DNA of 64,000 nucleotides, from the IMG/VR virus record IMGVR_UViG_3300033481_000147, positions 3,523-67,522 of that record. One strand, given 5' to 3'. The translations under genes and the position numbers were made by a program. Each line of letters opens with the position of its first letter. The first letter of the stretch is position 1. The DNA is from a virus (taxonomy: Duplodnaviria; Caudoviricetes). Shown here piece by piece: positions 2,677 to 54,426 of this stretch. The notes below the pieces were generated by a model. That model worked only from the letters and a program-made list of their open reading frames with translations. It searched no databases and had not been told where the DNA came from.

Positions 2677-3624
2677 TTGAGAAATTTGGAATTACAAGTA
2701 ATTAGTAATGTTCAAGAGTTTAAGTGGAATTTTGAAGATATAAAGAAAAGCTTGCAGGAAAGTGTTCAAAAATATACTGGATTAGTGGTTAATGAAGATA
2801 ATCTAAAGGATATGGAAAAAACGCAAAAGGAAATTGCGTCAATTCGTACTCAAATTAATGCATTTCAGAAAAAAGTTAAAAAGGATCTTGAATTACCATA
2901 TAAGCAATTTGAAAAAGAGATTAAAGAATTGCAATCATTAGTCGCTGAAGCGGAAAATCCTATCAAAGATCAAATTCTAAAATACGAAAATGTGCGAATT
3001 GAAAACTGCGAAAAAGAATTAAAAAATTTTGCAAAGAACACAGCGGAGAGTTTAGGGCTTAGAAGTGAGAACTTTAATTTAGTAATTGATTCAAAATGGA
3101 CAAACCGTACTGCTAAAAAAGCCTCAGTTCGTAAGGAAATTGTTGCCGAAATCGAAAATCAATTAAAACAACAACAAATGAATGATGAAGCTGCTGAATT
3201 ACTTAAACAAAAAAACGATTTAATTAAAAGTTTATGTAAAAGCGGTTCAGCAATGTTCAATCTTGCAACGCCTATTACATCAAAAGATGTTAAACATTTA
3301 ACCATCAATGCTGGCTTAGCAGAAATACCAGAGATTATTAGTCAAGAATGCAAAAAACGCTCTGATATGGAGAGAAAGGCAGCGGAGGAAATTATACAAC
3401 CCGCAACTCAGCCAATGCCGCCGGTAGCGCCAGCTGTTTCAGAATGTCCGCAATCTAGTATCCCAACGATTGCAATTCCACCAATAAATGCACCTGTGGA
3501 GTTTTATAAAGTTATTCTTGAATTACCATCAATATCTTATCAAGATTCAATCAACTTACAACAGTTTATGGCAAATAGCAATATCCAATATAGAGTTGTG
3601 AGCCAAGAAAAGAAGGTTGATTAA
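2677..3624 (+). CDS. DUF1351-family protein
   Basis: WNFEDIKK...KYTGLVV...PYKQFEKEIKEL coiled-coil pattern; recombination-module position. Confidence 0.75.
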   Translation: MRNLELQVISNVQEFKWNFEDIKKSLQESVQKYTGLVVNEDNLKDMEKTQKEIASIRTQINAFQKKVKKDLELPYKQFEKEIKELQSLVAEAENPIKDQILKYENVRIENCEKELKNFAKNTAESLGLRSENFNLVIDSKWTNRTAKKASVRKEIVAEIENQLKQQQMNDEAAELLKQKNDLIKSLCKSGSAMFNLATPITSKDVKHLTINAGLAEIPEIISQECKKRSDMERKAAEEIIQPATQPMPPVAPAVSECPQSSIPTIAIPPINAPVEFYKVILELPSISYQDSINLQQFMANSNIQYRVVSQEKKVD

Positions 3625-50169: not shown

Positions 50170-50188
50170 ATATTGAGTTTAGAAAGAG

Positions 50189-50212
50189 GAGCTGAAATAA
50201 GCTCTATTTTTT
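50189..50212 (+). terminator. Terminator-like hairpin between tail and lysis genes
   Basis: GAGCT-gaaata-AGCTC-TATTTTTT. Confidence 0.5.
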
Positions 50213-50277: not shown

Positions 50278-50451
50278 ATGGGTGATGATGTAATTCAAAG
50301 ACTTTTTAGCAAAATTGACAATCTATCTGATCGCTTGGCGCGAGTAGAAACAATGCTGGAAGAACGAGAGAGGAAACAGACGAATATTGCTAGCATAATC
50401 GCCTGGCTAGCAGCAACAGCAGTTGCCATATATGGTGCAGTACATAGATAA
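50278..50451 (+). CDS. XhlA/holin-like small membrane protein (57 aa)
   Basis: Read manually; coiled coil plus C-terminal TM. Confidence 0.65.
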   Translation: MGDDVIQRLFSKIDNLSDRLARVETMLEERERKQTNIASIIAWLAATAVAIYGAVHR

Positions 50452-50463
50452 GAAGGTGAAACA

Positions 50464-50802
50464 TTGAAAAACAGAATATTGGCATTTGCAAACTGGGCGC
50501 AGACGAATTGGCTTGCGCTTGTTATTTTCATGACAGTTATTTTAATGATATTGCTTTGCGTAATTGCATTTTCTTGGATCTTCGGGTATTGGTCAAACGG
50601 TCTATATGGCACAAAATTTGAACTCGGTTCTTGTTGGTCTGGAATAACTGTCGTAATCACTGGCTTTGGTGGGGTGATTGGCCTAGCAAAAGCCGCATGG
50701 ACTAAATACGCTACTGATAGTGAGAAAAATTCACCAATAGGCGAGATGCCAATTAACTTTAAAAATAATATTAATAAAGAGAGGAACGGTTTAAATGGCT
50801 AA
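50464..50802 (+). CDS. Holin
   Basis: Two TM segments, charged tail, precedes endolysins. Confidence 0.75.
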   Translation: MKNRILAFANWAQTNWLALVIFMTVILMILLCVIAFSWIFGYWSNGLYGTKFELGSCWSGITVVITGFGGVIGLAKAAWTKYATDSEKNSPIGEMPINFKNNINKERNGLNG

Positions 50803-51178
50803 ATATTTTAGTGAAGATGAATTTAAATGTAAATGTTGTGGAGAGTTACCAGCTAACGGCATTGATGAAAACTTACAAGAATTATTAGATGATATCAGGG
50901 AAAGAGTAGGACAACCAATTATTTTAAATTGTTGTTATAGATGCGATTCACACAACGCAGAAGTTGGGGGAGTACCAGGCAGCCAGCATAATGCAGATCC
51001 TTGCACAGCTGCCGATATTGATGCATCTGAAATTGGAGTTGAAGAATTAGCGCAAATAGCTGAATCATTAGGTGCAGATGGTGTTGGCCGTTATTTTGGC
51101 GATGCAGGTACTTTTGTGCATGTTGACGTACGTAGTGGTCGCATTGGAGATAATTATCGTTGGAATGAAGGTGAATAA
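50795..51178 (+). CDS. Peptidase M15 endolysin
   Basis: YFSEDEFKC, YRC..HN..VGG...SQH, AADI, FVHVD. Confidence 0.9.
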   Translation: MAKYFSEDEFKCKCCGELPANGIDENLQELLDDIRERVGQPIILNCCYRCDSHNAEVGGVPGSQHNADPCTAADIDASEIGVEELAQIAESLGADGVGRYFGDAGTFVHVDVRSGRIGDNYRWNEGE

Positions 51179-51179
51179 T

Positions 51180-51632
51180 ATGATGCCAGAGGAATTTATC
51201 GGATGGCTTGCACCGGCAGCAATGAATAAATCTGCTTTTTTCAATTTACCTGCATCGGTATTAATCGCTCAAGGAATTTTAGAGTCTGGGTGGGGTACGT
51301 CTATAATTGGTGAGTATAATTTGTTTGGCCGAAAATGGGGCGGGTGGGGTAACTATATCGAAGTGCCTACGCAAGAATATATTGATGGTGAGTATGTAGA
51401 TACAGTCGCTAAATTTCAAGATTATGATAGTTTGTATCAAGCTTGTGATGATTGGTGTGTTCTAATATCACAAGATGAAAAATACGACTACCCGTACGGA
51501 ATATGGAACGCAACGCACGATATTGAACAATTTGTGAGTGCTTTAGCTGATGTATATGCAACTGATCCAGATTATGCGGATAAAATATTATCAACCATTA
51601 AGGCAAATGAATTAACGAAATATGATGCATAA
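51180..51632 (+). CDS. GH73 glucosaminidase-like endolysin
   Basis: AQGILESGWG, YNLFG.K, YATDPDYA. Confidence 0.9.
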   Translation: MMPEEFIGWLAPAAMNKSAFFNLPASVLIAQGILESGWGTSIIGEYNLFGRKWGGWGNYIEVPTQEYIDGEYVDTVAKFQDYDSLYQACDDWCVLISQDEKYDYPYGIWNATHDIEQFVSALADVYATDPDYADKILSTIKANELTKYDA

Positions 51633-51702
51633 CAAAAATAAAAGCGCTGAAATCGAATTCTATGAGATCGATTCTAAGCGCTTTTATAAATTATTTTAAG
51701 AG

Positions 51703-52140
51703 GTGGGAAAATTGAATGAACAAACTAAAAATTATTTGCGCATCGGTATTGTTATTGTGTGTGTTGCAATTATCATTTTTGCCGGTTGGTTTCTGCTCAG
51801 AGACATACACGATAACGGAACAACAGCTGACAACGTTAGAGAGCAACTTGACGCAGTTGCAAGAGAACAACAATCAGCTGAAAAGTCTCTTGAATCAGTC
51901 CAATCAGGAATTGCAGACAGCGAGCGAACAGTCGGAGAACTTGAGCAGTCAGCTAGTGCAGCTCAATCAACAGCTGACCGAATCGCAGAATCAAATAGCA
52001 ATATTAAAACAGCAGTTGATAGCGCTCAAAGAGCAAACGACAGCAGCACAGAACTCATTAACGATAGCGAATCAAGAATTAGCGAATGCCAGTCAATCTT
52101 ACAAGCAGTACGTGCAAGAGCAGGAACGGATTCAGAGTAA
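51703..52140 (+). CDS. i-spanin-like protein (N-terminal TM plus coiled coil); start may be TTG 51712
   Basis: TM YLRIGIVIVCVAIIIFAGWFLL then A/S/E-rich helix; after endolysins. Confidence 0.6.
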   Translation: MGKLNEQTKNYLRIGIVIVCVAIIIFAGWFLLRDIHDNGTTADNVREQLDAVAREQQSAEKSLESVQSGIADSERTVGELEQSASAAQSTADRIAESNSNIKTAVDSAQRANDSSTELINDSESRISECQSILQAVRARAGTDSE

Positions 52141-52210
52141 GCTAAAAACGCAAAAAAATATATGGGAAGTTATTGCAGTTATTAGTGCTGGGTTTGCAAT
52201 AGCTAAATGA
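51716..52210 (+). CDS. Overlapping spanin-like partner (signal peptide, Q/L coiled coil, C-terminal hydrophobic helix)
   Basis: +1 frame overlap of 425 nt; heptad Leu/Gln pattern. Confidence 0.6.
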   Translation: MNKLKIICASVLLLCVLQLSFLPVGFCSETYTITEQQLTTLESNLTQLQENNNQLKSLLNQSNQELQTASEQSENLSSQLVQLNQQLTESQNQIAILKQQLIALKEQTTAAQNSLTIANQELANASQSYKQYVQEQERIQSKLKTQKNIWEVIAVISAGFAIAK

Positions 52211-52212
52211 TT

Positions 52213-52260
52213 AAAATGTCGGAATTAATACGAAAAAATATTAATTCCGACATTTTTTTT
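52213..52260 (+). terminator. Strong terminator, 18-bp perfect stem
   Basis: AAAATGTCGGAATTAATA/TATTAATTCCGACATTTT plus T-run. Confidence 0.85.
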
Positions 52261-52373: not shown

Positions 52374-52400
52374 TATTAACTAATTTTGGAGGAATGTAAA

Positions 52401-53312
52401 ATGGCAACAGTAGGCGATCAATTAACAGAAGCAGAAGCAGGGTGGACGAGGTATGATGATACTAATGAAAATATAGCCTATACGGGAACTTGGAAGAATG
52501 TTGTAGATAGTACCTATTATAACGGTAACAGACATACATCTACCCGAATATATGATGATGTAAAATTTAACTTCACAGGGAATAAATTAAGGATTATTGG
52601 TGCTTATAATAGTGTTGACAGTAATAATGTAAAAATAACTATCGATAAAGAAATTTACAATATATCAGTGTACAGTGAAAGTCTAATTAAACAAGTATTG
52701 GTTTTTGATATTGAAAATTTATCGACTGGTGAACATTGTGTAACTATTACAAATTTACAAGATTCTAAATATTGTACTATTGATGCATTAGATATTGATG
52801 AAACGGGAGAACTTAAGCCTTATGCCCCAATCGTTGCACCTACAAATTTAACAGCTACTGCAGGTGATTCACAAGTAACATTATTATGGACAGCAGTCGA
52901 AGGCGCAACCAGCTATATCGTAAAACGTTCTATTACATCAGGTGGTACATATGAAACAATTGCTAGTGGTGTGACTGATACTAGCTATGTTGATACCAGT
53001 GTAACGAATGGTACTACATATTATTATGTAGTAGTTGCAGTAAATGCAGATGGAGAAAGCAAAAATTCAAATGAAGCTTCTGCTACACCAGTAGATAATA
53101 GTAAGTTCTTATTACGAGTTACTATGCTTGATTCAAGCGAACGCGATTATCAGTTATCTACAACTGAAATTGATGGTTTCATTAACTGGTATATGAAGCA
53201 TACAAGTACAGATACTACTGGATATATGCTGACTAAAAAAGTTGGTACAGAAGTTAGCAAGGAATACCTGACTTTAGACAAGATTATTAGTTTTGAGGTA
53301 ATTGAACGTTAG
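52401..53312 (+). CDS. Jelly-roll plus FN3 plus conserved C-terminal domain protein, paralog 1
   Basis: APTNLTATAGDSQVTL...TNGTTYYYVV FN3; no signal peptide; GGAGGA SD. Confidence 0.85.
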   Translation: MATVGDQLTEAEAGWTRYDDTNENIAYTGTWKNVVDSTYYNGNRHTSTRIYDDVKFNFTGNKLRIIGAYNSVDSNNVKITIDKEIYNISVYSESLIKQVLVFDIENLSTGEHCVTITNLQDSKYCTIDALDIDETGELKPYAPIVAPTNLTATAGDSQVTLLWTAVEGATSYIVKRSITSGGTYETIASGVTDTSYVDTSVTNGTTYYYVVVAVNADGESKNSNEASATPVDNSKFLLRVTMLDSSERDYQLSTTEIDGFINWYMKHTSTDTTGYMLTKKVGTEVSKEYLTLDKIISFEVIER

Positions 53313-53324
53313 TAAGTAATAGAG

Positions 53325-53368
53325 AAACCGGTATTGGTACAGAAAATGTATCGATGCCGGTTTTTTTT
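53325..53368 (+). terminator. Intrinsic terminator
   Basis: 17-bp stem with three G-U pairs, T8 tail. Confidence 0.85.
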
Positions 53369-53377
53369 ATTTTATGT

Positions 53378-53478
53378 GTTTAAAAATCGTGATGAAAAGA
53401 ATGTATATAGGTGAAAGCCGATATACAGGAAACACGCATTGAAAATATGAGTTCCTCGGCTATGTTTGCTTTTAAAAA
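53378..53478 (+). promoter_or_regulatory. Conserved promoter plus leader hairpin, copy C
   Basis: Stem 53414-53425 pairs with 53461-53472. Confidence 0.75.
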
Positions 53479-53505
53479 TAATAAATTATTTGGAGGAATG
53501 TAAAA

Positions 53506-54426
53506 ATGGCAACAGTAGGAGATCAATTAACAGCACCGGAGGGCGGATGGAAACGATACGATGATACTGATACTCACATAGCGTATAGTGGTACATGGAC
53601 TTACAATACTTATTCTGGTTCATATAATACATCAGAACATATTACTAAAGTACTTAATGATTCTTGCTCTTTCAAGTTTTATGGTTCCAAATTAAGGATA
53701 ATCGGTGTTTATAATTCAAATTGTTCAAAGACTATAAATGTAAACATTGATGGAGTGTCATATTCTTATAGTGCATATGCTTCATCATTAATAAGACAAA
53801 CAATAAATTTTGAGAAGACAGATTTATCGTTAGAGGTGCATACTGTTACAGTTACAAATGAAGTATCTGGTTCTTATGCGACATTAGATGCTATTGATAT
53901 TGATGATAGTGGCTATTTAGGATCAATTACTGCACCAACAAATTTAACTGCAACAGCAGGTGATTCGCAAGTGACTCTATCATGGACAGCAGTTGATGAA
54001 GCAACTAGCTACACTGTAAAACGTTCAACAACTTCAGGTGGTACATACACAACTATCGCTAGCGATATAACTGATACCAGTTATGTAGACACTACCGTAA
54101 CAAATGGAACTACATATTATTACGTAGTTACTGCTGTAAATGATTATGGTGAAAGTGAAAATTCAAATGAAGCTTCTGCTACACCGGTTGATAGTAGTAA
54201 AGTATTGCTGGTAATCACAATGTCAGAGGAAGTACAAAAGGAATATGAACTTTCAAAAATCGAGCTTGATGCGTTTATTGATTGGTATAATACTCGTGCT
54301 GAGGGGACTGGCTTAGCTTATTATATCTTTAACAAGGATTTCAACTTGGGACCATTTGATAGCCGAAAAGATTATATTGTTTTTGATAAAATTGAAAACT
54401 TTGAAGTAATGCAATTCACAAAATAG
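53506..54426 (+). CDS. Jelly-roll plus FN3 plus conserved C-terminal domain protein, paralog 2
   Basis: Same architecture; GPFDSRKDYIVFDKIENFEV tail. Confidence 0.88.
   Translation: MATVGDQLTAPEGGWKRYDDTDTHIAYSGTWTYNTYSGSYNTSEHITKVLNDSCSFKFYGSKLRIIGVYNSNCSKTINVNIDGVSYSYSAYASSLIRQTINFEKTDLSLEVHTVTVTNEVSGSYATLDAIDIDDSGYLGSITAPTNLTATAGDSQVTLSWTAVDEATSYTVKRSTTSGGTYTTIASDITDTSYVDTTVTNGTTYYYVVTAVNDYGESENSNEASATPVDSSKVLLVITMSEEVQKEYELSKIELDAFIDWYNTRAEGTGLAYYIFNKDFNLGPFDSRKDYIVFDKIENFEVMQFTK

Follow-up and report, generated by a model that had tools for sequence, protein, structure and literature searches.

Lysis of diderm hosts is finished, once holin and endolysin have acted, by spanins, and disruptin-type cationic peptides and the LysB esterase of mycobacteriophages are possible alternatives to them for this final step. 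Diderm Firmicutes have a lipopolysaccharide outer membrane tethered by OmpM. As defined so far, both two-component and unimolecular spanins need an outer-membrane lipoprotein signal (PMC6139136), and the Negativicutes are stated to lack lolA-E, with no outer-membrane lipoprotein identified in them (PMC5491611, PMC10665443). In this regard, a comparative study of Negativicutes prophages treats the lysis module without spanins (10.1101/606087), and a full-text search, made on an incomplete coverage of the literature, turned up no article describing a spanin, or another factor for outer-membrane lysis, in phages that infect diderm Firmicutes. Here we describe a pair of extensively overlapping genes, open reading frames (ORFs) 1 and 2, located at positions 51712-52210 of a 64,000-nucleotide (nt) stretch of an IMG/VR provirus (record IMGVR_UViG_3300033481_000147, 67.5 kb, positions 3,523 to 67,522; hereafter, the window). 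Judging from sequence comparisons, this is almost certainly a true dual-coding locus, where two conserved proteins are encoded behind one ribosome-binding site. Our preferred reading of its function, held with modest confidence, is that the pair does the job of a spanin in the disruption of the outer membrane, without a lipoprotein and with a different second subunit.

Both genes are read from the same, plus strand. ORF1 extends from a TTG at 51712 to a TAA stop ending at 52140 (142 amino acids, aa), and ORF2, in the +1 frame with respect to ORF1, from an ATG at 51716 to a TGA stop ending at 52210 (164 aa). The 425 nt between 51716 and 52140 are read in both frames, and ORF2 extends 70 nt beyond the end of ORF1, which is the layout termed 'overlapped' among two-component spanin loci. 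A single Shine-Dalgarno sequence, GAGGTG (51700-51705), is common to both ORFs, with a spacing of 6 nt to the TTG and of 10 nt to the ATG, and related loci show GGAGG, GGGGTGG or GGAGTG sites at equal spacing. The initial annotation had described an overlap of this length in +1 frames right after the endolysin genes, together with one GAGGTG placed to serve both starts, and the ORF coordinates and the spacing bear out both statements. A GTG at 51703, called as the start of ORF1 in the ORF list, was discarded: it lies inside the Shine-Dalgarno sequence, and the homologues begin with M-N-E-Q/K-T-K at the next NTG, which sets the start of ORF1 at TTG 51712.

DNA of related loci was obtained from IMG/VR viral contigs, Joint Genome Institute (JGI) metagenome contigs, Propionispira genomes and 401 genomes sampled from the GTDB phylum of Propionispira. 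About 35 complete related loci were inspected, with ORF2 identities down to ~40% and beyond; in all of them the frames of ORF1 and ORF2 are both open and the two ORFs are invariably found together, and the third frame is interrupted within 2-24 codons. The initial annotation named the conservation of only one frame as a result that would speak against it; what these homologous overlapped pairs revealed is two open frames under separate constraint. The paired starts are also kept, as TTGAATG, ATGAATG, GTGAATG or ATGTATG in most loci, behind a strong Shine-Dalgarno sequence. A distant subfamily from IMG/VR (L028-L041, near position 3000) has instead the arrangement ATGTG, with the ATG of ORF2 first and the GTG of ORF1 2 nt further on, so the near-coincidence of the starts is conserved and their exact geometry is not. 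The sole exception is a locus in a 3.6-kb contig of a Selenomonadaceae metagenome-assembled genome (L015), where both frames are still open behind a 5' end without start motif; unrelated sequence (L015:2790-2830) stands there in place of the Shine-Dalgarno sequence and the paired starts, which may represent an assembly joint or a decayed copy. Relatives of each frame have been annotated independently by gene callers in metagenomes, usually one frame per place.

The retention of two frames over such distances is hardly obtained by chance. When synonymous codons were permuted with the ORF2 protein and its codon usage kept fixed, the ORF1 frame survived in 0.1% of 2000 trials in the window, and in 0.1-1.5% for the other complete loci; in the reverse shuffle, with the ORF1 protein fixed, the ORF2 frame remained open in 1.1% of the cases in the window and in 1-10% in most loci. 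A comparison of the window with the related locus L003, where two single-coding tail genes of equal protein identity (63-68%) served as controls, revealed third-position differences of 0.34 in the ORF2 overlap compared with 0.55-0.61 in the controls, and differing codons at 0.30 of the conserved residues compared with 0.48-0.60. Synonymous variation in ORF2 is, in this comparison, half that of the single-coding genes. First-position differences reached 0.21 (controls, 0.28-0.30) and second-position differences 0.24 (controls, 0.16-0.20), so that the highest conservation in ORF2 no longer falls on the second position, as would be expected if this is also the wobble position of ORF1. Moreover, for pairs with 40-65% ORF2 identity, the similarity between ORF1 proteins lies at z values of 4.4-8.5 above a null preserving the ORF2 protein alone, and the similarity between ORF2 proteins at 4.8-9.1 above the reverse null.

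Codon usage also bears on the relation between the two genes. In the stretch 51712-52137, ORF1 resembles the phage genes, with a third-position GC content (GC3) of 0.29 compared with 0.27 and a usage score within the range of the genes, indicating that it is no accidental frame. The usage of ORF2 resembles that of an off-frame (GC3 0.55), because the third base of its codons is the first base of those of ORF1. By the reasoning usually applied to overprinting, such a composition suggests that ORF1 would be the older frame and that ORF2 arose on it later, although of the two proteins it is ORF2 that is better conserved today. As a side observation, the hydropathies of both proteins run in phase along the DNA, with a mean r of 0.40 at lag 0 and secondary peaks at +7 and -7 (12 out of 12 loci; positions 51820-52137 in the window). 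The TTR leucine codons of ORF2 fall on xTT codons of ORF1 (L, V, I or F), so the same DNA encodes the hydrophobic seams of the two helices.

The ORF1 protein starts with basic residues (K/R) followed by a canonical transmembrane domain (TMD) at residues ~10-29, which in the family measures a ~19-residue uncharged run with a mean hydropathy of 2.49. Conserved W-F-L-F-R and D-x-H-D-N-G motifs come next, and a third conserved motif, D-S-E/Q-R-R-I-x-E-C/S-x-x-I-L, is found at the C-terminus. In the AlphaFold2 model (predicted local distance difference test, pLDDT, of 80, with values up to 94 in the long helix), helices 3-30 and 37-141 are joined by a short linker, and the second of them, of 105 residues, shows a hydropathy period of 7. 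The claim of an N-terminal transmembrane segment plus a helix of about 110 aa in the initial annotation is therefore upheld by both the TMD and the modelled helix, and from these features a type II topology, with the N-terminus in and the C-terminus out, can be inferred. A profile of ORF1 recovered 609 cluster representatives at E ≤ 1e-3 and 179 at E ≤ 1e-10, most of them full-length (112-190 aa). The ORF1 of the window itself matches phrog_18860, of unknown function (E 1.3e-6), and phrog_739 only at E 0.005; phrog_18860 is also matched by 21 out of 40 diverse relatives, for which the sole recurrent functional PHROG label is 'Rz-like spanin' (six families, best E 3.9e-7). No Pfam spanin family was matched by ORF1 at E ≤ 0.1, which places it in no described spanin family, and no relative of it was found in the Protein Data Bank. 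Searches of the ESM Atlas returned only unnamed clusters, viral and from Bacillota.

Relatives of ORF2 were found down to 37% identity. The protein starts with a cleavable-type signal, with a predicted cut between VGFC and SETY in a disordered stretch, which is followed by the strongly conserved tip of the mature protein (T/M-Y-x-I-T/S-E-x-E/Q-L-x-x-L). Its AlphaFold2 model (pLDDT 87) consists of one helix (35-163) with a clear period-7 hydropathy, so that the mature protein, of ~137 residues, would be mostly a heptad helix of ~115 residues. At the other end, the motif K/R-x-Q-K/R-N-I-W-E/Q precedes a hydrophobic tail with one terminal K or R, in which the uncharged run comprises 12 residues in the window and 9-15 in the family, half of them G, A, S or T. 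The C-terminal hydrophobic segment noted in the initial annotation is thus present, but it is short, weakly hydrophobic and below a canonical TMD, which was considered and rejected for a run of ~12 residues as against 19-20. As for the export signal, alignment of the cut sites (GFC/SE, GYC/SE, SFA/AE, SWA/SA, CGA/EA and CLA/EP, the slash indicating the cut) puts the TYxITE sequence in register behind each of them, and all obey the -3/-1 rule of signal peptidase I, with a Cys at -1 where other clades have Ala. This alignment pattern indicates that ORF2 is a probable substrate of signal peptidase I. None of 23 ORF2 relatives has a [LVI][ASTVI][GAS]C lipobox, which, together with the position of the Cys at -1, sustains the earlier proposal that ORF2 is not a standard lipidated o-spanin. 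Among ORF2 relatives only generic coiled-coil PHROG matches were obtained, and in the Protein Data Bank only generic coiled coils; in Pfam, neither ORF1 nor ORF2 has a match at the family cut-off, the weak ones being mostly to coiled-coil families.

A protein of 167 aa (P0146, known from protein only) starts like ORF1, with a TMD and the sequences S-D-N-G and E-Q-Q-S-A, and ends like ORF2, with Q/L heptads, a W-containing hydrophobic tail and a final K. A natural fusion, the product of a frameshift or a fault of assembly could each explain it; a real protein of this kind would mean a single chain anchored at both ends.

The pair of the window belongs to the branch related to Propionispira and the Selenomonadaceae, and the nearest relatives fetched are ~74% identical to it at the nucleotide level. 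Related prophages reside in Propionispira raffinosivorans, P. arboris and a Selenomonadaceae metagenome-assembled genome, and true pairs were confirmed in four genomes (G001, G032, G226 and G352) of the 401-genome sample, the last three of which add to the hosts just named. A close ORF1 profile matched three of these 401 genomes; a broad one matched 79, mostly through partial matches within long unrelated helical proteins, and yields no prevalence figure (two of its matches, L061 and L065, were checked and proved false). A further search of 50,697 GenBank phage records, both by DNA and by protein (four queries from three subfamilies), found no relative, which agrees with, but does not prove, a restriction of the family to hosts that are poorly sampled. 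Both Propionispira genomes encode LpxC, two Lgt homologues and LspA, and LolA was not found in either of them. The absence of a Lol pathway in Negativicutes, which the initial annotation had given from background knowledge, accordingly holds in the literature (PMC10665443, PMC5491611), and the lack of LolA in these two genomes agrees with it. Its suggestion of a diderm Firmicute host is borne out in part: the related prophages do occur in diderm Negativicutes with LpxC, but the provirus record of the window comes without a host genome.

The pair travels as a module among mosaic phages. Besides the pair, the window has in common with some of the relatives only tail genes and downstream genes of the FN3 type. 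In 15 out of 19 loci the nearest sizeable gene on the 5' side encodes a peptidoglycan hydrolase, and at least six unrelated families are represented among these enzymes: M15 plus glucosaminidase, GH25, Amidase_3, Amidase_2, VgrG3-C-like and papain-like, with an endolysin PHROG in L010. In three loci a protein of ~190-207 aa without Pfam or PHROG match occupies the place of the endolysin (L004:5404-5988, L006:3143-3766 and L007:5355-5924); a G-V-S-Q-W-E-G motif is common to the L004 and L007 proteins and is not present in that of L006. These proteins may be undescribed wall hydrolases.

Under the reading we prefer, the wall would first be removed by the holin and the two endolysins of the cassette, and the two helical proteins would then act jointly on the outer membrane, either destabilising it or causing its fusion with the inner one, as the final step of lysis in a diderm Firmicute. 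ORF1 would be a type II inner-membrane protein sending a helix of ~105 residues into the periplasm, similar to an i-spanin, whereas ORF2 would be exported through Sec and cut by signal peptidase I to give a heptad helix of ~115 residues, with its conserved tip at the new N-terminus and, at the C-terminus, the short hydrophobic tail attaching it to a membrane. A lipoprotein sorted by Lol would not be used, since such hosts could not deliver one to the outer membrane. The two modelled helices would measure ≈ 16-18 nm, which is of the order of the width of the periplasm, and each of them is long enough to approach the outer membrane. If both proteins were anchored at the inner membrane and packed in antiparallel, the C-terminal motif of ORF1 and the N-terminal tip of ORF2 would meet at the distal tip of the complex.

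A more specific arrangement, which seems rather unlikely to us, is that of a lipoprotein-free spanin with parallel helices in register. In this case, ORF2 would be fully exported once cut, and its short, weak Gly/Ala-rich tail, having escaped the inner membrane, would insert in the outer membrane on the side of its inner leaflet and replace the acyl anchor, which hosts without Lol cannot deliver; ORF1 would be anchored in the inner membrane, and the co-encoded heptads would zip in register, drawing both membranes together; the ratio between subunits would be set by the competition of a weak start (TTG/GTG) with an ATG at one ribosome-binding site.

A complex prediction for ORF1 and ORF2, with their two periplasmic parts, gave a score of 0.33 (best control, 0.00), which weakly supports an association; contact agreement between runs was at least 87%, the pLDDT of the partner at least 82, and an interface was not reported. 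In the calibration of this score, the mark was reached by 58 out of 80 solved complexes and by two out of 110 mismatched pairs; at scores of 0.60 or under, it was reached by seven of the 80 solved complexes and by both passing mismatches.

Several points weigh against a role of the pair in the disruption of the outer membrane. Neither ORF1 nor ORF2 carries a known outer-membrane targeting signal or anchoring mechanism, and the tail of ORF2 may fail to span a bilayer. The score obtained for the modelled complex falls in the weak range of its calibration. The matches of the ORF1 relatives to Rz-like PHROGs are weak as well, and could reflect the mere composition of a TMD plus a coiled coil. With regard to the association with lysis genes, the adjoining 5' gene encodes no recognised hydrolase domain in three of the 19 loci. 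Finally, the evidence on hosts comes from related loci only, as no host genome is attached to the provirus record, and a distribution restricted to diderm hosts would rest solely on the absence of the family from the 50,697 GenBank phage records.

In a credible, if clearly less probable, explanation, both genes are real lysis genes with another job, such as an antiholin-like timing of the holin, the release or activation of the endolysins, or an action on the inner membrane or on the tether between OmpM and the peptidoglycan. As the TMD of ORF1 and the tail of ORF2 may leave both proteins anchored in the inner membrane, a regulatory complex there would fit them as well as a spanin, and the lack of a known outer-membrane targeting signal is in line with such a function. 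Moreover, the cassette has another small protein combining a coil and a transmembrane segment, encoded at 50278-50451. On the other hand, helices of ~105 and ~115 residues exceed the need of a regulator, and the pair is found in many unrelated endolysin and holin contexts, which argues that it is tied to no single holin or endolysin partner. Likewise, no other candidate for the disruption of the outer membrane was seen in these cassettes.

An improbable alternative makes ORF2 a lipoprotein of non-canonical type, which would carry its lipid on the conserved Cys of G[FY]C and work as a unimolecular spanin in the way of T1 gp11 (one end lipidated, the other a TMD), with ORF1 as an accessory protein. 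A Cys does occupy the conserved site in 17 out of 23 relatives, one of which (L018, with VGSC) alone fits the looser PROSITE-type lipoprotein pattern. The Lgt and LspA enzymes of Propionispira would be available for lipidation, the combination of an N-terminal signal and a C-terminal hydrophobic end is the layout of a u-spanin, and unusual lipoboxes such as AWAC are functional in u-spanins (PMC6139136). However, the residue at -1 of the Cys is Phe or Tyr, where accepted lipoboxes, deviant spanin ones included, have Gly, Ala or Ser. The Cys is moreover lacking at the conserved site in L027, P0013 and L050, and considering also L023 and P0008/P0012 it is either absent or found at -3, with the motif of the mature tip still in register. 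Without Lol, no route to the outer membrane is known for a lipoprotein, and the evidence for ORF1 as a gene is no weaker than that for ORF2.

At least as improbable is that the pair is cargo, namely a membrane module for superinfection exclusion or lysogenic conversion that merely separates the lysis genes from the module that follows. Firmicute-type prophages often carry accessory genes past the lysis cassette, and unrelated genes with FN3 domains come next in the window (52386-54426). A view of the whole cassette, on the plus strand as well, speaks otherwise. A pattern scan detected a terminator-like hairpin that closes the tail operon 5' of the lysis cassette (50188-50205), and an intrinsic-terminator-like stem-loop with a T tract at the end of the cassette (52213-52256); GC-rich inverted repeats with T tracts, judged by eye, also follow ORF2 in most of the loci listed. 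Between the two hairpins of the window are found, in this order, a 57-aa protein, a holin candidate, an M15 peptidase, a glucosaminidase and the overlapping pair. The 57-aa protein (50278-50451), taken from the ORF list, has a coiled N-terminal part and a C-terminal transmembrane segment and is weakly XhlA-like (Pfam XhlA E 0.011, which is below the cut-off and thus only a hint). The following protein, with 112 aa and multiple transmembrane segments (50464-50802), matches phrog_28789, of unknown function (E 9e-36), and is a probable holin because of its hydrophobic segments and its position immediately 5' of the endolysins. Endolysin 1 is an M15 peptidase (50795-51178; Pfam Peptidase_M15_3, E 1.3e-17; phrog_894, endolysin, E 9e-31) and endolysin 2 a glucosaminidase (51180-51632; Pfam Glucosaminidase, E 1.7e-23; phrog_3513, endolysin, E 9e-43). 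The latter is listed as an ORF from a GTG at 51072 to 51632, overlapping the M15 gene by 107 nt, and its likely start, as judged from the sequence, is instead an ATG pair at ~51180, right behind the M15 stop. No good promoter match lies in the interval from the endolysin stop to the pair, and a terminator occurs only after it, indicating that the pair is read within the lysis transcript, which is hard to reconcile with cargo; nor would cargo be expected to stay with endolysins of six families across highly mosaic phages. The genes beyond the cassette terminator are tandem paralogues with CE2_N-like and FN3 domains (phrog_10059; 52386-53312 and 53506-54426), and similar genes follow the pair in L001. 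The remaining window corresponds to a tailed prophage, with terminase, a P22-type coat protein and tail proteins.

Last, that a single frame is functional and the other one merely tolerated by a repetitive composition rich in Q, L, E and S is very improbable and largely refuted: coiled-coil genes rich in CAG, CTG and GAA often contain long alternative frames, the third codon position of ORF2 is still the most variable of the three and only one gene is annotated at most places, but both frames are open in all complete loci to ~40% identity (probability per locus in the shuffles, 0.001-0.015), each frame stands at z ≥ 4.4 over the reciprocal null, the synonymous variation of ORF2 is halved with respect to the controls, ORF1 combines a codon usage like that of the genome with a canonical TMD, the heptads of ORF2 are preceded by a signal peptide and its membrane tail reaches beyond the overlap, and the paired start codons are conserved.

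The interest of the pair is manifold. Both types of spanin need an outer-membrane lipoprotein and none is known in these hosts, so the pair offers a concrete and testable candidate for the escape of their phages. As a case of extreme overprinting, with ~140 codons read in two frames from near-coincident starts, it should be useful for the study of dual-coding constraint and of start-site choice. The family is also under-annotated, as in the majority of loci gene callers report a single gene of the pair. If the proposed function is true, finding the pair in an uncultured phage of the Firmicute type would point to a diderm host.

Compared with the best-known two-component systems, lambda Rz/Rz1 and P2 LysB/LysC (Kongari et al. 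2018, PMC6139136), the pair occupies the same place, as the closing genes of a holin-endolysin cassette, and uses one DNA stretch for two proteins, the second of them in the +1 frame. The pair has no significant Pfam similarity to Rz or Rz1. As in the i-spanin Rz, ORF1 appears to be inserted in the inner membrane with type II topology and to extend a long helical domain into the periplasm, and as modelled it has the TMD plus long helix that define the architecture of an i-spanin, the difference being that its periplasmic part is one continuous helix where Rz has two helices and a linker. The second subunit departs further from the known cases. Rz1 and LysC are small proline-rich outer-membrane lipoproteins, whereas the mature ORF2 is a predicted all-helical heptad protein of 137 residues, whose signal is of the signal peptidase I type and which has a hydrophobic tail at the C-terminus but no lipobox; the small size and low structure of o-spanins are not seen in a mature protein of ~137 residues predicted as one helix. 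ORF2 thus falls outside the o-spanin and u-spanin definitions by its lack of lipobox, and outside the former also by its size and structure. The genetic arrangement differs from that of these systems too, as the starts are 4 nt apart behind one Shine-Dalgarno sequence and nearly all of ORF1 is dual-coding, and so do the hosts of the relatives of the pair, which are without Lol.

With the u-spanin T1 gp11 (PMC6139136), ORF2 shares an N-terminal export signal and a C-terminal hydrophobic end, and in both cases one chain could cross the periplasm. T1 gp11, however, needs a lipobox with its lipidated Cys and is predicted to be rich in beta-strands, whereas ORF2 has no lipobox and is modelled as one long helix; its tail is shorter than a TMD, and it is always accompanied by ORF1. 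Neither ORF1 nor ORF2 resembles disruptin-type peptides or the LysB esterase, as they are neither short cationic peptides nor enzymes. Altogether, what is already known from other systems is the spanin-like place of the pair and its probable role, and what is probably new here is a non-lipoprotein second subunit together with an almost complete dual coding.

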